Assembly: GCA_902765485.1 (NCBI GenBank)
Contig: CACWZZ010000016.1
Location: forward strand, 41,991 to 105,990
Source of the DNA: an uncultured Bacteroidales bacterium
Lineage (GTDB): Bacteria; Bacteroidota; Bacteroidia; Bacteroidales; Paludibacteraceae
DNA length: 64,000 bases
Direction of reading: 5' to 3'
Under the pieces are notes generated by a model. That model did no database searches, had not been told where the DNA came from, and worked only from the letters and a program-made list of their open reading frames with translations. The position numbers and the translations under genes are program-made. The number at the start of each line of letters is the position of its first letter. The first letter of the stretch is position 1. Below, in pieces: positions 4,720-32,780 of the stretch.

Positions 4720-6715
4720 CCGGCAGCGGACTGTAGTCGTGGCTGTAACGGAGATGTTGCTCGATATAGCCTTCCGTGAAATCGATCTTAACATCCGTGA
4801 TATTGCCCTCGGCATCGCGAACGGCAGTATAAACCGGATTGACGAAACCCTTGTACGGCGCAAGATTGAGTTTCTTATAGCGCTCCAGGATCTCTTTATG
4901 CAGGTCCTGGTCCACCTTAACCGCATATTTCTCCACGATCGCTTTGGCAGCAGGATAATCGCCTTCGGAGGTGATGCGCTGGATCTCAGCCAGCAGTTCG
5001 CCATAGAGGCGACGCAGCCCTTCGTAGTCGTTGATTTGCAGATAGTGCTTGCCGTCGCGCTCGATAATCTCCACCTCTTTGTTGGTCGCATGATCATAGA
5101 CCCATCCGGCGATCAGTTGGCGGTTGCGCATGTGCGCTTCCTCAATATCTTTACCCGGTTCGATACGCACAAGTTGGGTCATCAGACCGTTCATCATCTG
5201 CTGGTAATAACCGGCTTTGTACGCCTCCATATTGGGCAGCAGACCGAGTTCCACGAGTTTGGGATCCGCCAAATAATAGAGCCCGAAGAGGTCCGCGCGC
5301 GCTTCCTCGATCGTCGAAGCGTGCTCCTTGAGTGCATCCTTGGTCACACCTGGCAACAGCTTGCCGGAACCGTGTCCGACGCACTCATGGAGGTCCGTAT
5401 GGAGGTCACCGCAGGCCGCTCCGTACTGCTCATAGATAGCGCGGATCTCGTCGTCAATCATGAACTCCTCGTTGAAACCGTTACCCTTCGCAGCCTCGTT
5501 GTACGCGTGCATGAGGTTGTCAATGGTGACGGATTTGGAGCCGTACTCCTTGCGAATCCAGTTGGCGTTCGGCAGGTTGATGCCGATCGGCGTAGCGGGA
5601 TAGCAGTCTCCGGCAAGGATAGCCGCGGTAATAACCTTTGCGGTCACACCTTTGACTTCCTCTTTTTTGTATTTGGGATCGGTGGTCGAGTGGTCCTCAA
5701 ACCACTGCGCGTTGGAGGAGATGAGTTGGGTGCGCTTGGTAGCCGCAAGGTCCTTGAAGTTAACCATGGACTCCCATGTGCCGGTGATTCCGAGCGGGTC
5801 GGTGTACGTCTCCGTAAAACCGTTGACGTAGTCCACGCGGCTGTCGAGGTCGCGCACCCACGCGATACAATATTCATTGAAAGTCTTGAGGTCACCCGTT
5901 TCGTTGAACTCAATCATTTTCTCGATTGCCAGTTTCTGGGCGTCGTTTTCGGCATACTTCAGCGCTTCACGGAGCCAATAAACGATGTGTTCGAGCGCTT
6001 CTCCATAGAGACCACCCACTTTATAAACCTGCTCCTCGATCTCGCCGTTTGCGTTCTTGACAAGTTTGGAGTTCAGACCGATCCAGAGCGGCTCAGAGCT
6101 GTTGTCCTTATGAAGGGCATACCACTCCTCGGCTTCCGCTTGGGTCACGCCTTCGCCGTAGTAGTTGCCGGCAGAGTTGAGCACCAGATCCACGCCGTCC
6201 TGCGCGGTAGTGCGCTTCGCCATGATAGCCGGGTCGAACATCACCGGCAGGATCGCCTCATCGTATTGCACACCCGCTTTCTCGCAAGCGGCAACGAACC
6301 ACTCCTGGCTGAACTCCGGCAGGAACTTATCCTCGGAATAATGATGGTGAATACCATTGGAGAACCAGACGCGCTTGAGGTAACGCTCGAAGGCGGCGAA
6401 CTCGTCCGTATTCTTATCATACGGATAGTTCACATACAGGTTCTCCAACGCACGACGGATACGGAGATTGTAGCGTCCGTTCTGGTCAAACAAGATATCG
6501 CGTCCCCATAGAGCCGCTTCACTCAAGCAATAGATGAGCTGCTTCTGCTGCAGACTCAACGAATCGAACTCCGGCACGTCATAGCGCAGGATCTCCAGGT
6601 CATAAAACTTATCCACGTTGTATTGGAAGGAGGTTGTTTCTTTCGGCTGGCAAGCGGTGAACGCAAGAGACAAAAGAATGAATAATGAATAATGATTAAT
6701 TGATAATTTTTTCAT
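4709..6715 (-). CDS. peptidase family M49 (dipeptidyl-peptidase III-like) lipoprotein
   Basis: HECVGHGSGK plus EEARAD zinc motifs; MKKLSINHYSLFILLSLAFTAC lipobox from the ATG at 6715. Confidence 0.85.
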   Translation of the reverse strand: MKKLSINHYSLFILLSLAFTACQPKETTSFQYNVDKFYDLEILRYDVPEFDSLSLQQKQLIYCLSEAALWGRDILFDQNGRYNLRIRRALENLYVNYPYDKNTDEFAAFERYLKRVWFSNGIHHHYSEDKFLPEFSQEWFVAACEKAGVQYDEAILPVMFDPAIMAKRTTAQDGVDLVLNSAGNYYGEGVTQAEAEEWYALHKDNSSEPLWIGLNSKLVKNANGEIEEQVYKVGGLYGEALEHIVYWLREALKYAENDAQKLAIEKMIEFNETGDLKTFNEYCIAWVRDLDSRVDYVNGFTETYTDPLGITGTWESMVNFKDLAATKRTQLISSNAQWFEDHSTTDPKYKKEEVKGVTAKVITAAILAGDCYPATPIGINLPNANWIRKEYGSKSVTIDNLMHAYNEAAKGNGFNEEFMIDDEIRAIYEQYGAACGDLHTDLHECVGHGSGKLLPGVTKDALKEHASTIEEARADLFGLYYLADPKLVELGLLPNMEAYKAGYYQQMMNGLMTQLVRIEPGKDIEEAHMRNRQLIAGWVYDHATNKEVEIIERDGKHYLQINDYEGLRRLYGELLAEIQRITSEGDYPAAKAIVEKYAVKVDQDLHKEILERYKKLNLAPYKGFVNPVYTAVRDAEGNITDVKIDFTEGYIEQHLRYSHDYSPLPDVN

Positions 6716-6737: not shown

Positions 6738-6745
6738 CAAAGATA
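6738..6745 (-). promoter_or_regulatory. -7 promoter box (TATCTTTG on minus strand)
   Basis: TAnnTTTG match 23 nt upstream of the M49 peptidase start. Confidence 0.55.
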
Positions 6746-6754
6746 CAACAAATA

Positions 6755-6786
6755 ATTCAAAATTCAAAATTCAAAAGTTCAAAATT
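6755..6786. repeat. tandem 7-mer word array (ATTCAAA x3-4)
   Basis: Read directly; lies just upstream of the -7 box of the M49 peptidase gene. Confidence 0.7.
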
Positions 6787-6850
6787 AAGCAAAACGCAAA
6801 AAAAATCGCCCCTAAGAGCGATTTTTTTGCACTTCGTATGTCCTTCGTAC

Positions 6851-7831
6851 TTATTTTACGCGGGAACCTTGTACATTATACATGATTCCATTGTACATCA
6901 GATAGAGTTGTCCGTTGCGGATCATTTTGGAAGCCTCGCCTGAAGGGAAGGGGGTATTCTCCAGACCCGTGACCAGCATGTCGGGATGCAGGTCTTCCGC
7001 TCCGGTGATCTCGGTACTCGTTTCACCGATCCATCCGCATACCTGTTGCACGGCGGTATAGACTTTGACGAAATGAATAGCCGGCAGGAAAACGGGATTG
7101 CCGCTGTTATCCACCGCCCATCGGATGCAGAACTGACATCCGTCAGTCTTATTGGGATGGTTATCGGCATAGCCGTAGTCATAGGTATAGAGGACGAAGG
7201 AGTGCTGTCCGTTCTCGCCCTCATCCACGGCATTGGGAGCCAGAAGCGAGCCGGTGAAAGTGAGTTCATCGGGTGCCCAAAGGGGGAAATAGTCCTGCTG
7301 ATGAAAACTATTACGCGGCACAACGCCAGATCCTCCCCTGTTGTCGGTCCAAGGGATGTCTGCGAGCCCATCCGGGCGGGTATAAGTGACGGCATAGCGG
7401 TGGACGGTAGCAGGCGAGTTATACTCGCTTCCCGCCAGTTCGTACCACGGGTCATCGGGCAGTCCGTTCCCATTGGCGTCATAGCTGACCATGACGATTC
7501 CGGGTTCGGCAGCTCCCCCTTTGCGGGATGTGTCCTTGGCATAGGAGGCATAAGACGCATTGCCGGTGATGCGGAAGTCATAGTCGTTTAGCGAGTTGGT
7601 AACCGGATGATCAAACCCGAATACGATATAGCCACCCCACGCACCAAGACAGACCATCCCGCCGGCGTTATTAGCGAGAGCCGCTTCGGCTTTGGCAGCC
7701 ATCGTCTCGGGCGTATCGTCCGTTGTAGCAGCCGGCATCGCGTTGGTGAACTGCCCAGGCGCGGGCATATATTCATACACCCGCGCCAAATAGGGCGAAA
7801 CGGCCAATAAGATAGTTAGTAACACATGCAT
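6851..7831 (-). CDS. secreted/cell-surface protein of unknown function with a conserved C-terminal tail
   Basis: N-terminal hydrophobic signal; starts 3 nt after the giant upstream gene; C-terminus MIRNGQLYLMYNGIMYNVQGSRVK. Confidence 0.7.
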   Translation of the reverse strand: MHVLLTILLAVSPYLARVYEYMPAPGQFTNAMPAATTDDTPETMAAKAEAALANNAGGMVCLGAWGGYIVFGFDHPVTNSLNDYDFRITGNASYASYAKDTSRKGGAAEPGIVMVSYDANGNGLPDDPWYELAGSEYNSPATVHRYAVTYTRPDGLADIPWTDNRGGSGVVPRNSFHQQDYFPLWAPDELTFTGSLLAPNAVDEGENGQHSFVLYTYDYGYADNHPNKTDGCQFCIRWAVDNSGNPVFLPAIHFVKVYTAVQQVCGWIGETSTEITGAEDLHPDMLVTGLENTPFPSGEASKMIRNGQLYLMYNGIMYNVQGSRVK

Positions 7832-7834
7832 GGC

Positions 7835-10800
7835 TTATCGTATTACGCGGCCGTTGAGGTCAAACATCCGTTCTCCACGGAGGATGAAGATCTGTCCGTC
7901 AAGGAGGAGTTTAGTGGTGATTGGTGAATGGTCATTGACGACTTGCTCCAAGTCCGTCGCAGGGGACGGTCTGGTACCACCGAAGTTATCGAGACAGAAA
8001 TAGGTCGGCGTAGTAAATCCATAAGCGTCCGACTTGGTAGTGAAGAGTTCAAACTCCAGCCGCGTGATAGCGCCCAGCGAAGAGAGGTCGAACCATCTCC
8101 AGGTATTGAGAGCGAAATGCTCGTCGGCATTCTCGGAGCGGTAGTCCGCGAGATAGAAGACCACCTCACCTGTTTTCTCCGATCCGTTGTATCCCTTCGC
8201 GGTAACAGACATATAGTCGCCTTGCGCAAAAGCGTCGCTGGCATAGTCGCCGTTAAGAATAGCGTCAAGGGTATAGACGGTGTTGGTGATATAGAATCCG
8301 GTGATCGTTTGCGGCTCTGCACTATTGGTGAGCAGAATCGGATCCATATAACCGGCGAACCAAACGGACGGGGCGGAATAATACGCTACGGCGTAGTTAT
8401 TGCCTTCGTACGCGCCTCCCGCAGCCGAGCGGAACTGGTCAATGTTATAATTGCCGGTAGCCTCTGTCGATTGGTCGGAGCAGATGGCATAACCCGTATA
8501 AGCCTTGTATGCCTTGTTCGGCGTGTTGCCAAAGGCGTACGTGCCGCTATAGAGGTTCGTCTCGGTATTATCTACCCAAGCCTCATCCACATCCTTGTGT
8601 CCGTTCTCAGCGAGGGTGTATTCCTCGAAAGTAGCCGCAGCTGCTGCTTTCTCCACCCATACATGAGCAGAAACGATTGCTTGCTGACCGAAGCAGTCGG
8701 TGACGGTACAAATATACTCGGTTGTTTGGCTCGCTGTGAGCGCGAGAGTCGCCTCCGTGCCGATAACGGCATTGCTGAAAGCGGTTCGCCAAGCGTAAGT
8801 GTACGGTTTGGCTTGCTCGTATTCGGTAGCAAGGGACGCGGTGAGCGTGAAAGCGGCTTCGGCTGCTACGGTCTGTTTGCCAATCGGGTTCAGCACTACC
8901 GGACGAAGCGTCCACGCAGTAGTGAAAGCTGTTTCCTGATATGCCGCAGCGGCTTCTCCCAGCGGCGAGAACAAGAGGACATATGCCTTGTAGCCGGTTT
9001 CCTCACTCAGACCGGTAGCGGTAAAGGTCACTTCGCCGTCCTTGACAAGCGAAATCTCCGTCGTAGCAGCTGCCAGCGCCTCGATAGCAGGAGCATCACT
9101 CTCTGCCGGTAGCACAATCACTTTGGCGGTTCCGTAATTATCCGCTTTAATGACGATATCGGCTTTGGTGTCCTGCGTATTGGCGGTCGGATAGCCTTCA
9201 GCCATTACCGGCACACGGAAGAGGTCGGCATCATACTCGTACGCACCGATGGTAGGCGCAGCGGCACGGGTCTTGCCGGTGATATCAGCCGGAACAGAAG
9301 TCATCACTTCGGCTGTAAGGAGATGTCCATCATTAGTCTCCTTCGGGATGAGAAGCGTAGCGGAAGCGAACGTAACGGCTTCGTTGAGGTTGCCGTCCGT
9401 GTCGGTGGCACCCACTGCGGTCTTCCAGTCAGCAAAAGTGCTGACAGTCGCAGTCGGCATACCGAAAGTCGCTTCCGGCGTATAGAGGATGTTATGACGG
9501 TACGCGATATTGGCAATAGCTCCGGCGTTCTTATAGCGCACGGCGTAACCTTTGTTCGTAGCCTGGAAGATATTGTTCACGAATACCGAACCGGCAGCCG
9601 GAGCAGTTTCAATATAGTACGTGGACGAAGCTGTTCCTGCTGAGTTCATCACCATCGTATTATGGGCGAACAAAAGCTTCGGCATATTGCTGCTTGTGTT
9701 GATGCAATACGATGCATATTCGGAACCGTTCTGCACGTTCACTACATTGTTCACCACCTGCAACAGGGTGTTCTCCTTATCCTGATAGTTGTTCGGACGA
9801 ATGTAAATCGCCTTGATGCTTTGGTTATCGGCAGCTGTTCCGGAATAGAAAATATCATTCTCTGCGATAGTGGAAGAGCCACCGAGCAGGATCCAATCAA
9901 TAGCGTTTGCGCTGCTGGATTTAGCTTGTGCGCGGAATGTATTACCGATAATTTGCAGATTGCTGACCGCATCTCCGTAAACCATTTGTTTGCCCTGGTT
10001 GCGGATAGTATTGCGGCTGATAAGCATATTCTGCTGTAACGGATCCGCTGCGGCTTTGTGTCCGGTTACGTGGAGACCCATATAACCGCCCTCCAGCACG
10101 CTGTTGGTGAGCGCAAAATCATTATTGAAATTGTTCTCGCCTGCGTCCACGAAAAGGAGATCCAGACGAGCCGTATATTCCGTCTTGGTCTCAGCATAAA
10201 TGCGGCAGCTGTCAATCGTCACATGCGTAGCGGCGTTGCGTACAACAACCACTGCCGGGTTCTGGTTGGAAGTATAAGTGGAGGTGAAGGAAAGACCTTT
10301 GAGGGTCACATAGTCGGCACCATCAATGGTGAAGACACCCTTCTCAGAGCTCAGCGTGTTGTTGTATTGGTAAGTCACATCGTTGTAGTTGCCGGAAAGC
10401 GAACGGATAGTAATGGTGTTCGCCGAACCGGCTCCGTTAATCTGAGGAATAGTGACTTGCTCGGTGTACGTACCCGGTTCGATAGCTATCTCTACCGCGC
10501 CGTCCATACCAATCGTACTGATAGCCTTGAGTGCTGCGGTCAGCGTAGCGTAATCCGCCATGGCACTTGCGCCGACACGGTAGAAACCATGCGCACCGCT
10601 GACCACGTTGATAGAGACAGCGGCAGCACTTTGCGGAGCAATCTTCTGCTCACCCAGAACAACCTGATCCAGCGTGAGTGACACTACGTTACCCACCTCG
10701 GCTGCTGCATCCACAGAACCGACGAACCAGAAGTAATAAACGCCCTTCTCGTCCATGACATAACTGTCTGTAAACTCATTCGCGGTAGAGAAAGTGGCGG

Positions 10801-13800
10801 AATGGCCGGTTGCGAATATATGGCGGTCAATGAGCAGGTCCGAAACCGTCTGCTCAAAGCCGGTGATGGTAAGCGGAGTGCGGTCACCGGAGACATATAC
10901 AGCTGCTTGCATCAGGCGGAGGTCACCCGTTCCTTTGGTAGCCTCAGCCGGTGCCAGCGGAGTAACGAGCACCGAATCAACCGCAAGATTGGTCAACAAG
11001 TGCTGACGCACCTCTACTTCAAATCCGCTCTTTTGGCTCGTCGGCATCTTGACATATACGGTGATGGATCCGTCTTCGGCACGCGAGATGACACTCTCGT
11101 TCGCCTCGGGTTTGGAGTACATGCCGTATTTTTTATCCGAGGCTGCCTCGGCATCATAGGCGTTGGCATAGTAGATATGGAACGGATCGCCGGAGAGATA
11201 AGCGATATCGAAGTCCTTGAATACCAACTCTACGGCATAGCCTTCGGTAGCCGGCACGAAGGTGATATAGCCCTCGAAATTAGAACTGTAGTTCTCGTCT
11301 GCACCGCCATCGTCATAGAACATCAGACTGTTCTCTCCGATGGTAACGGTGCCGTTATCGCCGGCTTGGAGGTATCGCACGTTCTTCACGGTGCGAGCAC
11401 CTTCTGGGTCACCGGCTGCGACAGCCTGCGTCTCGCCGCTCAGGGTGACGCTTTTCAGGGCGGCATCGACATCGGTCTCTACCATGGCATCGGCTTTGAT
11501 ATCGGCGGCAAGCACAAATGCATTGCCATATTCAGCGAGTGCAAGCGGTGTCTCAAGCGTCAAGGCTACTTGAGATGCTGCCAGAGCCTGTGCCAATACG
11601 TTTTCGCCTTGCAACAGATAGAGGGTTTCGATATTTTCTTCCGTTCCCTTCAGGTCAACCGTCAAAGCATTGAGGTTCAGGGCATTGAGTGTGCCAATTG
11701 TCCGAATATCCAGATTGAGTAGTGCGGCTTTTTGCTCACCCGTCTGCACTAATTTGGTCGAAGCCTGAGCTACAGCAATCGTATCCACCTGCATGGCTTG
11801 CAACTTGTATTCCTTCACCGTTGCGTGCCAGCCGTTGCCGGTATAATAAGAAGACGTGGTGTTCGGGTTGAAGACAATCGTCAAAGCGCCATCCGCTGCC
11901 GTAGAACGAATCTGCGTCGGTTTCTTGCCGTTGGAGTCCAACTCCCATAGTTTGTCGCCGCTCGTACCCTCGCCCGCGTAAACAATATATTTCGCGCGCG
12001 TACTATACGAAGAAGAGGCATAATAGACATCGAAGTCGGTATAGTCAATCTGGATTACATGACCTTCGGTAGCGGGTTTGAAGATTACCGTCTGGTCGCA
12101 TTGCTCCGCCTGATATTTGGAATTATAGTCGCTGACCACGGTGTGGGTATATGCCCAATTGCCAAGGATGGTGAAAGTCTGCGAACCGCAAGCCTGAACA
12201 GCCTTGTTCTCGATTGTCAGTTCGCCGCTCTGGTCTCCGAAATCCGTAACGGACGTGCCGTTGGTAAAAGTTATGCTCGCAATAGTGACGTTCACTTTTT
12301 CGTCGTTCTGTGCTAATCCGTTGATGTCACACACCAGCCAGAGGTAGTTTTCTCCCTCGCGGAAAGCAATGTCAGCGCTCTTGGTAATAGTCACCGCGTC
12401 GCCTGTCACATTCGCTTCGCCGAAGAGGCGGGAAGTGCTAAAACTATTTTCCTTGGTGTAATAGAGTTTAGCCTTCGAGATCTGACCGTAAGTGCCGTTG
12501 GTGTTCAGCGCGAGCGAAGCCATGGTGAGAGCCGGTTCGGTCTCAGCGGTTGTGATTTTAATAGAAGCCACTTGGGCATTCTCCGTTCCGGCAGAAACGG
12601 TGCCAATGTTTTTAGTCAGATTCACTGTGCTGACGGTCATAGCCTGCGGCACAAACTCGCTAACCACAGCCTCCCAACCGTCGCGCAGGTTGGAGTCATA
12701 GGAGATATTATTCTTATGGGTAATCGTCAGTTTGCCATCCGCTGCCGTGCTCTTGAGGACAATCGCGGTAGTGGTACTTGCCTCGGCTTGCGAGAGTTGC
12801 CAGAGCAAATCTGCATCGTTCGTGGAGTTGCCGTTATAGACCTTGATATAATCCACATAGCCGGTCGAGTTGGCGGCATAATCCGTATAGAAGACATTGA
12901 TGCTGTTGAAGGTCAGTTTGACTTTGCTGCCCTCTGTAGCGGGAGTGAACACCACCTTGCCGTCAAAACCCTTAACGACCTTGCCGTCCTTGCCGCCTTC
13001 GTCAAAGAACTGCGTCTCGCCGGAAATCGTGTAAGTAGCATCCTCAGCCATGAGGTACATAGCCTGCACGGTCATCGTAACCGGCGTAGCCGGAGTGAAA
13101 GTCGAGAACCCTCCCGCTGTGCTGAAACCGGTTATATTTACCGCTGCAGTGGCATTAAACGCCGCAGTAGAAAGGATATTGCCGCCGAGCGAGAATGAAT
13201 TATTTCCATTGCTCAGCGCGTAGCCTTCCGACAAAGTATAGGTATAAATCCCTTCGTCCTCCGTGATTGTGCCGGCAATCTCGCCCAGACCAGTTACCGA
13301 AACACCTGTACCGGCGTAGAGTTTTAGTGTTGTGGGATCAATCACAGCGGAGTTGGAGCAGGTGAACGTGATGGTTTGCAGCTTATCAGGCAAAGAATAA
13401 CCGGATGTTGTGATAGTCATACCGCTCATTCCTACATTAGTCTTTCCTGCCCATATTTCGCCATCGACAAAAGTGTTGTCGCCCGCTGCGGACTCAACGG
13501 TCATGGTCTCTAAAAGCACCTCTTCCACCGTAGCTTTCCAATAAGACTCTTTCGGGCTCGGATCTTTCGAATACAAGCAAACGGACAGACAGCCGTCTGC
13601 TGTCCCCGAGATATAGGTCGGCAGCGGATTAACCGCACCATCGCCGGGGATATAGGCAATTTGATTCGCATTTTCCACAAAACTGCCGGTAGGATTTCCA
13701 CTGGTCGGATATGAAATACTCGTCACATCAAACTGACCGTTGTAAATACGCATGTACACATCATACGAAGCGCTGTACTTGGTCAGGTTCAGTTCCTCAA

Positions 13801-14032
13801 AGGTGATTTTGATCGAATAGCCCTCAGTAGCTGGTTGGAAGATCACCGTTGAGAAAGCGGATTGTGTGAAATGTGTGTCTGCTCCCTTGAAATCATAAAA
13901 GGTCAGCGGAGCGTCTTTGGATACTACTTTCGTTTCGTACCCATACTGCGGCATCAGGTAATCCTCTGCCATAGCTGTGCTGCCCAGCCATCCTATGACT
14001 AAGAGCAGCAAAAAGAAGTACTTTTTTTTCAT
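7835..14032 (-). CDS. giant (2065 aa) cell-surface protein: 4 CUB-like modules, parallel beta-helix region, Ig-like region, DUF4465-like C-terminal domain
   Basis: Signal peptide MKKKYFFLLLLVIGWLGSTAMA. Four recurrences of F-P-ATEG--I-I/L-F. Beta-helix-like N--I-N-G repeats. C-terminal YFCLDNFGG region, then a 22-aa tail. Confidence 0.85.
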   Translation of the reverse strand: MKKKYFFLLLLVIGWLGSTAMAEDYLMPQYGYETKVVSKDAPLTFYDFKGADTHFTQSAFSTVIFQPATEGYSIKITFEELNLTKYSASYDVYMRIYNGQFDVTSISYPTSGNPTGSFVENANQIAYIPGDGAVNPLPTYISGTADGCLSVCLYSKDPSPKESYWKATVEEVLLETMTVESAAGDNTFVDGEIWAGKTNVGMSGMTITTSGYSLPDKLQTITFTCSNSAVIDPTTLKLYAGTGVSVTGLGEIAGTITEDEGIYTYTLSEGYALSNGNNSFSLGGNILSTAAFNATAAVNITGFSTAGGFSTFTPATPVTMTVQAMYLMAEDATYTISGETQFFDEGGKDGKVVKGFDGKVVFTPATEGSKVKLTFNSINVFYTDYAANSTGYVDYIKVYNGNSTNDADLLWQLSQAEASTTTAIVLKSTAADGKLTITHKNNISYDSNLRDGWEAVVSEFVPQAMTVSTVNLTKNIGTVSAGTENAQVASIKITTAETEPALTMASLALNTNGTYGQISKAKLYYTKENSFSTSRLFGEANVTGDAVTITKSADIAFREGENYLWLVCDINGLAQNDEKVNVTIASITFTNGTSVTDFGDQSGELTIENKAVQACGSQTFTILGNWAYTHTVVSDYNSKYQAEQCDQTVIFKPATEGHVIQIDYTDFDVYYASSSYSTRAKYIVYAGEGTSGDKLWELDSNGKKPTQIRSTAADGALTIVFNPNTTSSYYTGNGWHATVKEYKLQAMQVDTIAVAQASTKLVQTGEQKAALLNLDIRTIGTLNALNLNALTVDLKGTEENIETLYLLQGENVLAQALAASQVALTLETPLALAEYGNAFVLAADIKADAMVETDVDAALKSVTLSGETQAVAAGDPEGARTVKNVRYLQAGDNGTVTIGENSLMFYDDGGADENYSSNFEGYITFVPATEGYAVELVFKDFDIAYLSGDPFHIYYANAYDAEAASDKKYGMYSKPEANESVISRAEDGSITVYVKMPTSQKSGFEVEVRQHLLTNLAVDSVLVTPLAPAEATKGTGDLRLMQAAVYVSGDRTPLTITGFEQTVSDLLIDRHIFATGHSATFSTANEFTDSYVMDEKGVYYFWFVGSVDAAAEVGNVVSLTLDQVVLGEQKIAPQSAAAVSINVVSGAHGFYRVGASAMADYATLTAALKAISTIGMDGAVEIAIEPGTYTEQVTIPQINGAGSANTITIRSLSGNYNDVTYQYNNTLSSEKGVFTIDGADYVTLKGLSFTSTYTSNQNPAVVVVRNAATHVTIDSCRIYAETKTEYTARLDLLFVDAGENNFNNDFALTNSVLEGGYMGLHVTGHKAAADPLQQNMLISRNTIRNQGKQMVYGDAVSNLQIIGNTFRAQAKSSSANAIDWILLGGSSTIAENDIFYSGTAADNQSIKAIYIRPNNYQDKENTLLQVVNNVVNVQNGSEYASYCINTSSNMPKLLFAHNTMVMNSAGTASSTYYIETAPAAGSVFVNNIFQATNKGYAVRYKNAGAIANIAYRHNILYTPEATFGMPTATVSTFADWKTAVGATDTDGNLNEAVTFASATLLIPKETNDGHLLTAEVMTSVPADITGKTRAAAPTIGAYEYDADLFRVPVMAEGYPTANTQDTKADIVIKADNYGTAKVIVLPAESDAPAIEALAAATTEISLVKDGEVTFTATGLSEETGYKAYVLLFSPLGEAAAAYQETAFTTAWTLRPVVLNPIGKQTVAAEAAFTLTASLATEYEQAKPYTYAWRTAFSNAVIGTEATLALTASQTTEYICTVTDCFGQQAIVSAHVWVEKAAAAATFEEYTLAENGHKDVDEAWVDNTETNLYSGTYAFGNTPNKAYKAYTGYAICSDQSTEATGNYNIDQFRSAAGGAYEGNNYAVAYYSAPSVWFAGYMDPILLTNSAEPQTITGFYITNTVYTLDAILNGDYASDAFAQGDYMSVTAKGYNGSEKTGEVVFYLADYRSENADEHFALNTWRWFDLSSLGAITRLEFELFTTKSDAYGFTTPTYFCLDNFGGTRPSPATDLEQVVNDHSPITTKLLLDGQIFILRGERMFDLNGRVIR

Positions 14033-14119
14033 TGTATATTTTAATTAATTAGTAATAAGGAATATACGCGCATAGGCAAGTGCACCGACTGAAAAGCCGA
14101 TGTACTGCATACAAAACAA

Positions 14120-14335
14120 TATAAACAATAGTGATTGCTTCATCCGGTTCGCACTCTATTCCGCGAGAGTGATATGAACAGGGGAAAGCGGCATGTCTTC
14201 TGACTTGTCTCGTCCGTTAACGCCTTCTCGCCGACGCATCGGCAATGGCATGTTGGTTAAGGGACTGCGATTGAGACTTACAGCAGCGGGTCTGTACAGG
14301 ATTTACACCTGTTTCCATCTTAGCTTATGCGCGCA
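14120..14335 (-). promoter_or_regulatory. cobalamin (B12) riboswitch
   Basis: Minus-strand RNA contains GGAAACAGGTGTAAATCCTGTACAGACCCGCTGCTGTAA ... GCCATTG ... GAAGGC ... AGTCAGAAGACATGCC (B12 box). Lies in the 5' leader of the 2065-aa gene; aptamer ends are approximate. Confidence 0.85.
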
Positions 14336-14389
14336 TTTAAGCGCCATAAGAACCGTTTTCCTTTAGGGCATCCGTGTGGAGGTTCGGAA

Positions 14390-15292
14390 TTAGATTCTCT
14401 CAAGTACGGTGTGTACCAACTCTTTGATACGGGGTTTATAATCGGTGTTGGCAGCTTCGATCTTACGCTGTGCGATGACGCAGCAGACGGTCATAGCGCG
14501 GTGTCCCATGTGGAGTGCGAGTCCGGCGATACAGGAACCTTCCATCTCATAATTGGTGATCCGCTGACCCTCATAACGGAAAGCGGTGATCTTCTCGTTG
14601 ATGTCCGGCACAGCCAGATTCACGCGCAGAACACGACCTTGCGGACCGTAGAAACCGTTCGCAGCGATCGTGCAACCGCGCATCATATCGTCTTTGGCAA
14701 TGCGGTCCACAAGCTCCGGATTAGCGGCTACGACATACGGCACAGCTGCTTTTTTCGGGTAGCCGACGAAATCCACAAACGCTTTCTCGAAACCGAGGTC
14801 AGCGATCTTGTCGCGGTTCTCGTAGAACGCCAAGACGCCGTCGAAACCAATGGATTTCTGGCTTACCAGGAACGTACCCAGAGGAATATCCTCCTGCATA
14901 CCGCCGCACGTACCGATACGAACAATGTCCAACACGCGCTTCTCGGCTTTCTCCGTGCGGGTCGCAAAATCGATGTTTGCGAGCGCGTCGATCTCGTTCA
15001 TAACGATGTCGCAGTTGTCGGTACCGATACCCGTTGAGATACACGAGATACGTTTGCCGTGGAACTTACCGGTGATGGTGTGGAACTCGCGGCTCTGTAC
15101 GTCGCACTCGATCGATCCTTCGTCGAAGAAGGATGCTACCATATTTACTCGGTCCTGGTCACCCACAAGGATCACCTTGTCCGCCAAGAACTCCGGTTTG
15201 AGATGTAAATGAAATGCAGAACCATCCGCATTGATGATTAACTGCGAAGCTGGGAATGTTTTCATAGCAATGAATATTTTGTTGTTTTTCAA
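14390..15292 (-). CDS. nucleoside phosphorylase (PNP/UDP family)
   Basis: LINADGSAFHLHLKPEFLADKVILVGDQDRV and GTCGG/EMEG motifs; start may be the internal M at 15265. Confidence 0.8.
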   Translation of the reverse strand: MKNNKIFIAMKTFPASQLIINADGSAFHLHLKPEFLADKVILVGDQDRVNMVASFFDEGSIECDVQSREFHTITGKFHGKRISCISTGIGTDNCDIVMNEIDALANIDFATRTEKAEKRVLDIVRIGTCGGMQEDIPLGTFLVSQKSIGFDGVLAFYENRDKIADLGFEKAFVDFVGYPKKAAVPYVVAANPELVDRIAKDDMMRGCTIAANGFYGPQGRVLRVNLAVPDINEKITAFRYEGQRITNYEMEGSCIAGLALHMGHRAMTVCCVIAQRKIEAANTDYKPRIKELVHTVLERI

Positions 15293-16895: not shown

Positions 16896-17984
16896 TTAAT
16901 CTTTAATTTGTACTTTATACACATGCGTACTGCTGCCGTCCTCTGCTTTGACCGTGATCACCCAAGGTGTTCCGTTGATCTCACCGGGTACAACCGTCAT
17001 CTCCTGGCTGTCCAGTCTGCGGCCGTTGAAACGCGCTTTCTCTCCCTTGATATTGGTCAGCGTACCGATGCCGCGGAAACCGGCAATCTGAATATCCGAA
17101 GAAGAAGCGCCGAGAGCGGACAGTTTGCAAACCTGTACTTTCTCTGTATCGGGATTGAATTCCTTCCATTCGTTGCCGTTGATGGTCAGTTTGTCAATCC
17201 GCGACGAGTAGATCAACTCGACATCGTCCACATACAGCGCATTGCCGTCGTACAGACCGTCATTTGCACGGAATGCCGGATAGTTACCCGCCGAGAAAAT
17301 GACATTGCACATCGTCGGCTTGCCGTTGCTCATGTACAGAATCGGCACTTTGATCTGAGTCCACTCGTCGTATTTGGCACGAGCGCGATACCAGCCTTCG
17401 GCAATCTGCTTTGCCGGTTCGTCCACACCGCACTCATTGCCGTCCGTAGCGCGACGGATATCGCTCTCCTCGTTGATGCGCTCCGTAGCCGTACAGCCGC
17501 CTTTCTTATTCTTGTACTGGTGGCTTTTCGACGTGCCCTGCCAAGCATAATAAAGCAAATGAAAATCTTCGTCATTCGTCTTGGGTCCCACGCGTTTCAC
17601 CCACACGCTCATCGTGTCCGGACGGTGTTTCCAAGCGATACCGCCTTCCGTTCCGGCGGTCGCGCCATTCACATTCAGACCCCTCAGATACTGCCATGGC
17701 ACACCCAGCGACAGGTAACCGGGACCCGTGGCGCCGATACCCAGTTTAGGTATTCCCACTGCGCGATCGGTCATATAAGCGCAATGACCCGTACGACCGG
17801 GCTTTTGATATAAAAAGGTAAACTTAAATCCGGCTTGGTTGACATTCGATCCATGCCATTCCGTCAACTGGACATCTCCGTTGAACTTACCTCCCCAACT
17901 CTCGAAATGCGGATCCGGCAACTGCTGTGCGTTCGCCGCACTAAACACCCCGAGAATACTCAACACTACTAATAATTTCTTCAT
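16896..17984 (-). CDS. secreted PCMD-like (putative carbohydrate metabolism domain) protein
   Basis: Signal peptide from M at 17984; family call rests on weak overall resemblance only. Confidence 0.5.
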   Translation of the reverse strand: MKKLLVVLSILGVFSAANAQQLPDPHFESWGGKFNGDVQLTEWHGSNVNQAGFKFTFLYQKPGRTGHCAYMTDRAVGIPKLGIGATGPGYLSLGVPWQYLRGLNVNGATAGTEGGIAWKHRPDTMSVWVKRVGPKTNDEDFHLLYYAWQGTSKSHQYKNKKGGCTATERINEESDIRRATDGNECGVDEPAKQIAEGWYRARAKYDEWTQIKVPILYMSNGKPTMCNVIFSAGNYPAFRANDGLYDGNALYVDDVELIYSSRIDKLTINGNEWKEFNPDTEKVQVCKLSALGASSSDIQIAGFRGIGTLTNIKGEKARFNGRRLDSQEMTVVPGEINGTPWVITVKAEDGSSTHVYKVQIKD

Positions 17985-18003
17985 ACATCGATAAATTTTG
18001 TGC

Positions 18004-18011
18004 AAAGTTAC
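18004..18011 (-). promoter_or_regulatory. -7 promoter box (TAACTTTG on minus strand)
   Basis: TAnnTTTG match 20 nt upstream of the 17984 start. Confidence 0.55.
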
Positions 18012-18042
18012 ACTTTTTTTTGCATATATGCAAACTTTTTAC

Positions 18043-18050
18043 TACTTTTG
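18043..18050 (+). promoter_or_regulatory. -7 promoter box (TACTTTTG)
   Basis: TAnnTTTG match upstream of aroC. Confidence 0.55.
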
Positions 18051-18060
18051 CAGCAAATTA

Positions 18061-18170
18061 TTCAATTATCGTGCCATAGGAATTCAATTATCGTGCCATA
18101 GGAATTCAATTATCGTGCCATAGGAATTCAATTATGGTGCCATAGGAATTCAATTATCATGCCATAGATA
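18061..18170 (+). repeat. 5 x 22-bp tandem repeat forming the whole aroC leader
   Basis: TTCAATTATCGTGCCATAGGAA repeated head-to-tail; copies 4 and 5 carry 1-3 substitutions; the last copy runs into the ATG. Confidence 0.9.
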
Positions 18171-32207: not shown

Positions 32208-32780
32208 TTATTTTATTTCTTGTCCTAGTAAATCGTACGTCTTTCCTTTGTATTGGATATAGACCTGTCCGTTCTCAATGACCTTTGTACATGGTTTTTC
32301 GTCACTTTGTACATTTGGCGTAAGGTCTGTAGTCACCGCTTTCTCAAAACGCACGGAGACATTGCCCGTTCCGAGGGCTTCCGCCAAGCCCGAAGGATCG
32401 TCAATCTTGCCTATACGTGTGTAGGAATAAGAGCTGCTGAACGTCTCGTAGAACAGCACCACGCAGTTATTGCCATACAGCATCAGGTCGCCTGCCTGAA
32501 TCGTGCCGGGCCGGTAGCTGTCAGTCGGCAGGGATGAGTTCAGATAGTGGTATTTCTCGTTGCCGTTCAGTTCGTTCATCGTCACCGTCATCGGCAGCAG
32601 TTGCGCAAAGGCATTGCCTGTCTCGCTGTCCGCCAGCGTGGCGGCAAAGGTCTTTGTTCCAACAATCACATTGATTGACATAGCGGTATTTTCGTCATAA
32701 TACGCCACAAGGGTTTTGGCAGACCCTGTGGTGATGATTGCGCATAGTGCGCAGAGGATAGCTGATATACGTCTCATCAT
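32208..32780 (-). CDS. secreted cyclophilin-like-fold protein with a conserved C-terminal tail
   Basis: LPMTVTMNELNGNEKYHYL...GDLMLYGNNCVVLFY pattern; tail KVIENGQVYIQYKGKTYDLLGQEIK. Confidence 0.6.
   Translation of the reverse strand: MMRRISAILCALCAIITTGSAKTLVAYYDENTAMSINVIVGTKTFAATLADSETGNAFAQLLPMTVTMNELNGNEKYHYLNSSLPTDSYRPGTIQAGDLMLYGNNCVVLFYETFSSSYSYTRIGKIDDPSGLAEALGTGNVSVRFEKAVTTDLTPNVQSDEKPCTKVIENGQVYIQYKGKTYDLLGQEIK

Follow-up and report, generated by a model that had tools for sequence, protein, structure and literature searches.

A 2065-residue multi-domain protein with a BtuJ-type domain behind a cobalamin riboswitch in an uncultured Bacteroidales bacterium

Results

Organization of the locus

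The 64,000-nucleotide (nt) stretch of DNA analysed here, hereafter the window, comes from contig CACWZZ010000016.1 (positions 41,991 to 105,990, forward strand) of assembly GCA_902765485.1, the draft genome of an uncultured Bacteroidales bacterium of the family Paludibacteraceae, from rumen or gut. On its minus strand lies a cobalamin riboswitch followed by two genes, which encode a giant protein of 2065 amino acids (aa), P0001, and a 326-aa protein, P0002. An initial annotation, made from the letters alone, had described a well-formed B12 riboswitch in the leader of a two-gene unit, and a covariance-model search bears this description out: RF00174 is the sole Rfam match in the window, at 14173-14372 of the minus strand, and scores 99 bits (E 1.6e-23) where the gathering score is 31.5; the alignment spans the full model, positions 1-189 of 189. 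The element reaches 37 nt past the end coordinate, 14335, that had been given for it. A genome-wide search of the draft (2.1 Mb in 41 contigs) with the same model returned one riboswitch only, that of the window. The features of the unit are the following.

6799..6828, minus strand: terminator-like hairpin of 13 pairs followed by a T-run, closing the unit (fold of the 3' flank)
6851..7831, minus strand: gene 2, P0002, a 326-aa stand-alone BtuH-type protein (similarity to 8BLW_B and 7BIZ_A)
7835..14032, minus strand: gene 1, P0001, a 2065-aa exported multi-domain protein (open reading frame and full-length relatives)
14152..14171, minus strand: hairpin CACTCT-CGCGGAAT-AGAGTG with the invariant loop CGNGG, directly 3' of the aptamer (covariation)
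14173..14372, minus strand: cobalamin riboswitch aptamer, RF00174 (99 bits, whole model)

The riboswitch sits in a co-oriented leader, with 140 nt between the end of the aptamer and the ATG of the giant gene. The two genes are separated by a gap of 3 nt and share one reading frame, so that only TAA GCC stands before the ATG of P0002 (7829-7837). The leader riboswitch, the co-oriented genes and the closing hairpin together delimit a bounded two-gene unit, which is flanked by a peptidase M49 gene downstream and a gene for a PNP/UDP-type phosphorylase upstream. Scans with Pfam and NCBIfam found neither BtuB nor BtuFCD in the unit, as the initial annotation had stated.

Architecture of the giant protein

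P0001 was annotated at first as a giant with four CUB-like modules, a beta-helix and a C-terminal domain resembling DUF4465. All three parts were recovered, by profiles, by AlphaFold (AF2) models searched with Foldseek and by Pfam, and the chain can be divided as follows.

13967..14032, minus strand: signal peptide, MKKKYFFLLLLVIGWLGSTAMA up to the cleavage site and EDY after it, of the signal-peptidase-I type, with no lipobox cysteine (sequence reading)
13067..13960, minus strand: module 1, CUB-like half aa 25-175 and BNR_assoc_N-like half aa 176-322 (profiles, AF2, Foldseek)
12218..13066, minus strand: module 2, CUB-like half aa 323-465 and BNR_assoc_N-like half aa 466-605 (Pfam, profiles, AF2)
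11378..12217, minus strand: module 3, CUB-like half aa 606-745 and BNR_assoc_N-like half aa 746-885 (profiles, E down to 1e-25)
10613..11377, minus strand: module 4, CUB-like half aa 886-1012 and BNR_assoc_N-like half aa 1013-1140 (Pfam CUB, profiles)
9482..10594, minus strand: right-handed beta-helix, about aa 1147-1517 (AF2, Foldseek)
8654..9187, minus strand: two Ig/FN3-like domains, about aa 1616-1793 (AF2 secondary structure, Foldseek matches to FN3 and Ig folds)
7982..8512, minus strand: DUF4465 (BtuJ-type) domain, aa 1841-2017 (PF14717, Foldseek, tyrosines)
7838..7915, minus strand: 27-aa C-terminal tail, KLLLDGQIFILRGERMFDLNGRVIR (tail profile, E 8e-7)

The mature N-terminus, EDxLMPQ, is conserved among relatives. 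A BLASTP comparison of P0001 with itself gave no internal repeats; family profile hidden Markov models (HMMs) resolve aa 25-1140 into four two-part modules, each half of which cross-matches its counterparts with E values of 1e-6 to 1e-25. Pfam places BNR_assoc_N at aa 479-591 (E 1.9e-13), and its CUB model PF00431 reaches 29.7 bits against a cut-off of 21.4 for P0001 as a whole, with no single stretch passing alone; the best stretch is aa 926-1006 in module 4 (E 8.6e-7). The AlphaFold model of aa 23-610 has a mean predicted local distance difference test score (pLDDT) of 91.4. In Foldseek searches the first half of a module resembles the CUB domains of enteropeptidase, neuropilin a1a2, PCPE-1, MASP-1 and C1r/C1s with E values of 2e-9 to 1e-5, and the CUB domain of TSG-6 with a template-modelling (TM) score of 0.76 and a root-mean-square deviation of 3.5. 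The shared fold is accompanied by a sequence identity of only about 8-12% to the eukaryotic multi-CUB proteins (neuropilin, PCPE-1, MASP/C1r/C1s, enteropeptidase). The second half resembles the N-terminal domains of the Bacteroidales sialidases 4FJ6, 4Q6K and 6MYV. Cubilin is a multi-CUB receptor for the complex of intrinsic factor and B12. It is absent among the listed fold matches, and the B12 parallel with the modules is an analogy only.

The model of aa 1140-2065 has a mean pLDDT of 79.9 and ends in a low-confidence tail with three short strands. Its beta-helix consists of regular short strands, with pLDDT mostly 80-95, and matches YbhC (3GRH) and other beta-helix proteins in fold. This region gave no Pfam match, and neither P0001 nor P0002 was matched by any NCBIfam model.

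BtuJ-type and BtuH-type domains

The domain close to the C-terminus of P0001 is matched by PF14717 (DUF4465) over profile positions 2-176 of 176, with 146.4 bits against a cut-off of 25 (E 1.5e-42). The initial annotation had named this family as BtuH. It is the family of BtuJ1 (BT1491) and BtuJ2 (BT1957), with the structures 9FCT, 9QPM, 9I2L and 9HMU (PMC13398666, PMC13616437), eight divergent members of which have been shown to bind B12 (PMC13398666). The BtuH-type domain of the unit is P0002, which had been left uncharacterised.

In sequence the domain matches PDB entry 9HMU (E 7e-25) and BtuJ1 (E 3e-14). B12-bound DUF4465 structures, which have an augmented beta-jellyroll, are also the best fold matches of the model of aa 1140-2065, with TM scores of 0.72 (9HMU), 0.71 (9QPM), 0.68 (9FCT) and 0.56 (9I2L), at a pLDDT over the domain of only about 60-85; 4JQR is matched in fold with a TM score of 0.71. 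The conserved binding core of the family comprises two tyrosines of BtuJ1, Tyr146 of the DE-loop helix and Tyr245 of the HI-loop motif G/N-TPAYF (PMC13398666). Tyr1920 of P0001 (TNTVYTLDAI) aligns with the former and Tyr2011 (TTPTYF) with the latter. P0001 thus shares with BtuJ1 and BtuJ2 the Pfam domain, the fold (TM about 0.7), the signature tyrosines and the TPxYF pattern of the HI loop, and the likeness extends to riboswitch control and to the role proposed for these proteins, extracellular capture. However, the known BtuJ proteins are single-domain lipoproteins of about 230-300 aa processed by signal peptidase II, whereas the domain of P0001 accounts for 9% of its 2065-aa chain, at the C-terminal end; that chain has a signal-peptidase-I signal, no lipobox cysteine and a putative sorting tail. 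Its gene is also unlinked to btuB, and the genome keeps a small lipoprotein BtuJ in its transporter operon as well.

The alignment of P0002 to the BtuH proteins, namely BtuH1 (BT1488), BtuH2 (BT1956; 7BIZ) and the BtuH domain of BtuGH (BT1490; 8BLW chain B), covers their entire B12-binding globular domain. Residues 12-282 (6986-7798) match residues 393-660 of 8BLW_B with E 3e-79, a region that is the BtuH domain fused to BtuG1, and residues 16-281 match residues 222-491 of BtuH2 (7BIZ_A) with E 6e-46. Four residues of BtuH2, His476, Tyr510, Trp511 and Trp577, form hydrogen bonds with B12 (PMC8941943); P0002 keeps His476 (in NSFHQQDY) and Trp577 (in VCGWIGETSTE). Like BtuH1, it is without N-terminal Ig-like domains. 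In contrast to the BtuH proteins, P0002 is not a lipoprotein and has a 27-aa tail, and its gene directly follows that of the giant BtuJ-type protein, in frame with it. The 326-aa open reading frame that the initial annotation listed is present, and the secretion ascribed to it there is likely, though less firmly so than for P0001.

A putative C-terminal sorting tail

Both proteins of the unit end in the same short tail; that of P0002 is the following.

6854..6934, minus strand: putative sorting tail of P0002, aa 300-326 (tail profile, E 8e-13)

The consensus is close to K-V-L-R-D-G-Q-L-Y-I-x-R-N-G-K-T-Y-N-A-Q-G-A-E-V-K. An HMM iterated on crude open reading frames finds the tail in 72 frames of the genome, in 68 of them no more than 3 residues from the C-terminus; these 68 range from 92 to 3454 aa, and 59 have a hydrophobic run at the N-terminus. 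A third carrier within the window is the open reading frame at 32208-32780 (minus strand), which encodes a cyclophilin-like protein (PF18050).

The genome encodes machinery of the type IX secretion system (T9SS), with SprA_N (E 6e-187) in a 2589-aa open frame and a GldM/PorM domain (E 1e-15), and eleven consecutive tail-bearing genes stand about 4 kb from sprA. Only two open reading frames of the genome pass the cut-off of PF18962, the model of the standard type-A T9SS C-terminal domain (CTD). In orthologues of the giant and of its BtuH partner, the place of the tail is taken by the tail itself, by a standard type-A CTD or by a short Prevotella-type ending; standard CTDs occur in the giants P0062, P0060, P0067, P0104, P0112, P0119 and P0122 and in those of loci L026-L031, and in the BtuH partners of L016 and L018. 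Since orthologues swap the tail for the CTD, we infer that the tail serves for sorting as the latter does and that the route is type IX secretion. The resemblance to type-A cargo (PF18962/TIGR04183) thus lies in the presence of SprA and PorM in the genome, in the CTDs that orthologues have at the tail position, and in the placement of the tail as the very end of about 70 signal-peptide proteins, of which 11 are encoded near sprA. The tail differs from that domain in length, about 27 aa against about 75 aa, and shows no profile homology to it.

Leader and upstream junction of the riboswitch

The hairpin that directly follows the aptamer is found in 11 of 13 leaders, 24-48 nt past the B12 box. 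Among seven distinct leaders, both sides of the stem are changed in five of the six pairs, and 90.5% of cells are paired as compared with 26-45% in slid controls. This CGNGG hairpin is probably part of the expression platform. A kissing interaction between its loop and the L5 loop of the aptamer was considered and rejected, the complementarity being inconsistent (3-7 nt across 10 leaders).

On the upstream side, only 17 nt separate the stop codon of the PNP-like gene (14390) from the aptamer (junction 14373-14392). In relatives the aptamer is set apart from the upstream gene by a terminator and a Bacteroidetes -7 box (TAnnTTTG), and in a 93%-identical relative (L005) a terminator and promoter segment of 55 nt is present at this place. 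The promoter-less junction is identical in two independent assemblies (L024, L025), and no TAnnTTTG box occurs within 2.5 kb upstream on the strand of the unit. A junction lacking the 55-nt segment places the riboswitch inside a string of same-strand genes, and the unit is probably read through from four same-strand upstream genes, with the riboswitch serving as an internal gate. As regards the direction of the response, we assume repression by cobamides, from the riboswitch class and by analogy with the btu loci of Bacteroides (PMC13616437).

Cobamide uptake elsewhere in the genome

The initial annotation had set the giant in place of a transporter. This was an overstatement, for a standard BtuB1-BtuGH-BtuJ-BtuF operon lies on another contig, C6. 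Its products are a receptor like BtuB1 (8BLW_A, E 4e-124), a fusion of a BtuG propeller with a BtuH domain (8BLW_B, E 7e-85), and a small BtuJ and a BtuF-like lipoprotein, both of which, unlike P0001, have lipobox cysteines. Directly upstream of the operon is a full-length match to RF01482 of 38.6 bits, below the threshold of 50 (L002, 13941-14080, minus strand), which is probably a second, divergent cobalamin riboswitch of the adenosylcobalamin (AdoCbl) type. The genome further encodes a BtuC-type permease and a B12-dependent methylmalonyl-CoA mutase; of the corrin synthesis proteins, CbiC, CobS and CbiB were not found in this 83%-complete genome. The organism looks like a cobamide user that is obliged to scavenge. 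Given a separate transporter operon and the mutase, and no corrin synthesis genes found, the unit is best read as an extra, accessory unit of B12 capture and not as a replacement for the transporter.

Relatives of the giant and scaffold-only forms

Full-length relatives of P0001 with 43-98% identity occur in metagenome-assembled genomes of Paludibacteraceae from rumen and gut, and more distant ones, at about 34% identity, in Prevotella. For the comparison of leaders we used 17 loci, in each of which the DNA examined includes the start of the transcription unit (the window, L004, L005, L006, L012, L014, L016, L018, L019, L021, L022, L023, L026, L027, L028, L030 and L031); several are close kin, and they represent roughly ten distinct lineages. 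An RF00174 riboswitch lies directly upstream in all 17. In most loci a BtuH-type partner adjoins the giant, before or after it. The Prevotella-type loci have the giant within BtuB-BtuG-BtuH-giant operons, one of which, in L010, continues with BtuF and BtuC, in the order BtuB-BtuG-BtuH-giant-BtuF-BtuC; its giant of 2557 aa has three tandem DUF4465 domains (L010, 9560-11503). In L030 (about 5440-5530, genome G110) the frame of the giant breaks in the beta-helix and resumes in another frame, by a frameshift or an assembly error.

The scaffold of modules and beta-helix was found in 10 of 120 other genomes of the same family that were searched, and in 5 of 33 genera. When the first two modules were used for an exhaustive profile search, 391 clusters at 50% identity were obtained, with E values up to 1e-30. 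DUF4465 is present in 103 of the 131 listed scaffold representatives of at least 1500 aa and lacking in 8 of the about 110 listed representatives that have the beta-helix; the idea that scaffold-only genes are common was tempered accordingly, as they are a minority of these representatives. Scaffold-only genes were found in five loci, L012 and L023 (near-identical), L026, L027 and L028, two of them in the genus of the window genome. Their products have all four modules together with the beta-helix and a T9SS CTD, but neither the Ig-like region nor DUF4465. The genomes of these loci have one small DUF4465 gene elsewhere. For example, genome G073 (L027) has one riboswitch before the scaffold-only giant (758-950) and another before a small DUF4465 gene (6882-7088), 6 kb apart, an arrangement that amounts to the fused protein of the window divided over two genes.

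When P0001 is compared with L014, L021, L022 and other relatives, identity varies strongly from one domain to the next. The giant of L014 is 92% identical to P0001 in the CUB-like domain of module 2, 76% in DUF4465 and 35% in the beta-helix, and that of L021 is 72% identical in the beta-helix and 34% in the CUB-like domain of module 1. This mosaic suggests that members of the family have exchanged modules by recombination.

Discussion

Proposed role of the unit

Based on the above data, we consider it likely that the unit is an accessory cobamide-capture unit, which is turned off once the supply of B12 suffices. Homology, fold, signature residues and the conserved context all support what the initial annotation proposed, namely a B12-capture protein of unusual size and many domains controlled by a B12 riboswitch; the BtuH naming on which it drew does not stand. 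During cobamide shortage the riboswitch would let P0001 and P0002 be made, and their tails would send them to the cell surface or into the medium by type IX secretion or an equivalent route. The BtuJ and BtuH domains would then bind cobamides outside the cell and hand them to BtuG-BtuB, as proposed for the relay of Bacteroides thetaiotaomicron. Type-A cargo of Porphyromonas gingivalis is anchored by its C-terminus. If P0001 were anchored in the same way, the BtuJ domain would be held beside the outer membrane, with the CUB modules facing away from the cell.

An accessory unit with a riboswitch of its own is less odd than it may appear, because B. thetaiotaomicron has one: its locus 1 consists of riboswitch-btuK1-btuK2-btuH1 followed by riboswitch-btuB1-btuGH-btuJ1 (PMC13616437). 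Both organisms thus have an accessory-only unit and a transporter unit, each under riboswitch control, and the C6 operon corresponds gene for gene to the second of these (BtuB1, BtuGH, BtuJ). In the present genome, however, the two units occupy separate contigs, BtuK is absent from the accessory unit, which contains a giant fusion of scaffold and BtuJ domain in its stead, and the transporter-side riboswitch is of the AdoCbl type and sub-threshold (38.6 bits against 50).

Evidence against this role and rival explanations

Several observations weigh against the proposed role. The 140-nt leader is without an evident intrinsic terminator or helix sequestering the start codon (z-score -1.07), and the 55-nt segment of terminator and TAnnTTTG promoter that precedes the aptamer in relatives is missing in the lineage of the window. 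In P0002 Tyr510 and Trp511 of BtuH2 are not clearly conserved, their counterparts falling in a gapped loop with Gln-His, or Ser-Phe with the gap shifted, and the hydrophobic N-terminus (MHVLLTILLA, then VSPY) is very short, unusually so in comparison with relatives. Neither P0001 nor P0002 matches PF18962 or any NCBIfam sorting model, including TIGR04183, and a profile-profile comparison of the tail with the type-A T9SS CTD found no homology (HHalign probability 4.8%). The draft genome is incomplete, at an estimated 83%. Lastly, all five scaffold-only loci keep a strong riboswitch (93-109 bits), so the BtuJ domain cannot be the sole reason for B12 control, and the idea that the riboswitch tracks the DUF4465 domain was rejected.

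The upstream junction raises the question of whether the riboswitch still controls the unit in this lineage. With the promoter and terminator segment lost, the same 17-nt spacing after the PNP-like stop codon in two assemblies and no -7 box in the 2.5 kb upstream, the unit might be read through from the PNP-like gene whatever the level of B12. We regard such a loss of control as improbable, because a riboswitch within a transcript can still gate the genes downstream of it, and because the aptamer, the CGNGG hairpin and the 140-nt leader, all intact, match those of promoter-bearing relatives exactly or almost exactly. The reading frames of P0001 and P0002 are intact as well. Even more improbable, in our view, is that the giant is an ordinary glycan-binding or adhesion protein whose link to the riboswitch is accidental, the switch really serving the BtuH-type gene. 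Its CUB-like, sialidase-N-like and beta-helix parts are typical of adhesins and of carbohydrate-active surface proteins, more distant proteins that have only the BNR-like repeat in common are clearly different proteins, and the BtuH-type gene is the first after the riboswitch in several loci. However, the riboswitch is present in all 17 loci, including L006, L022, L012, L023, L026 and L028, which have no BtuH-type gene, and none of the 17 is without both a riboswitch and a btu neighbour; DUF4465 is fused to most of the long listed representatives (103 of 131), with the binding tyrosines intact in P0001; and the Prevotella gene sits inside btu operons.

A more serious alternative, though one we hold to be rather less probable than not, is that the scaffold does most of the work and the BtuJ domain is an optional addition, so that the CUB-like and BNR-like modules or the beta-helix carry a B12-linked activity. 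This activity could be that of a corrinoid-binding array, of an adhesin that during B12 starvation attaches to corrinoid-rich cells or particles, or of an enzyme that frees bound corrinoids. The strong riboswitches of L012, L023, L026, L027 and L028 speak for it, as does the integrity of the scaffold-only frames, one of which (P0122) is read on 20 contigs; in G073 the scaffold gene and the small BtuJ gene adjoin, each with its own riboswitch, and the modules would face outward if the protein is C-terminally anchored. On the other hand, the modules look like CUB and sialidase N-terminal domains of a generic kind, with no known B12 binder among the listed fold matches, and only about 10% of the scaffold clusters that have the beta-helix lack DUF4465. 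Moreover, scaffold-only genomes keep a separate BtuJ that could work together with the scaffold, and the modules, mosaic and diverging fast, have more the look of a variable surface arm than of a conserved ligand pocket. The accessory capture unit remains our preferred reading. Within it, the main reason to think that the scaffold does more than hold the BtuJ domain is that it is the part always under predicted B12 control, even where DUF4465 is absent. We tentatively raise, as a possible but doubtful extension, that the arm formed by the four CUB-like/sialidase-N-like modules and the beta-helix is itself a new B12-linked device and that the BtuJ domain serves for membrane-side hand-off only; this would explain the strong riboswitch on scaffold genes without DUF4465. 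Such an arm could be a corrinoid-binding array, or a starvation-induced adhesin or enzyme reaching producer cells, feed particles or carrier proteins.

Relation to known cobamide capture

Competition for B12 and related cobamides shapes the communities of gut and rumen. The known relay of Bacteroides (BtuJ, BtuH, BtuK, BtuG, BtuB) consists of small lipoproteins, whereas Paludibacteraceae and Prevotella appear to deploy both binding domains as C-terminally sorted cargo, one of them at the end of a chain that exceeds 2000 residues. The members of the giant family are annotated only as 'DUF4465 domain-containing protein', and we found no paper on this family, on DUF4465 together with T9SS, or on type IX secretion together with a cobalamin riboswitch; the BtuJ papers make no mention of multidomain or T9SS forms. 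The binding domains and the switch are thus known, and what is undescribed in the papers found is a giant architecture with predicted sorting by a C-terminal tail. The 27-aa tail may be an unrecognised sorting signal, which bears on the prediction of secreted proteins in uncultured bacteria. The predicted B12 control of scaffolds without a binding domain poses a testable question, namely what part the CUB/beta-helix arm has in B12 acquisition.

Repeats elsewhere in the window

Two sets of short tandem repeats were observed in intergenic DNA of the window. TTTTGAA heptamers stand in tandem at 6740-6800, past the terminator of the unit, in the leader of the peptidase M49 gene. A 23-nt unit, TTCCTATGGCACGATAATTGAAT, is repeated five times in tandem at 18006-18169, in a divergent intergenic region between the gene at 16896-18005 (minus strand) and the chorismate synthase gene.

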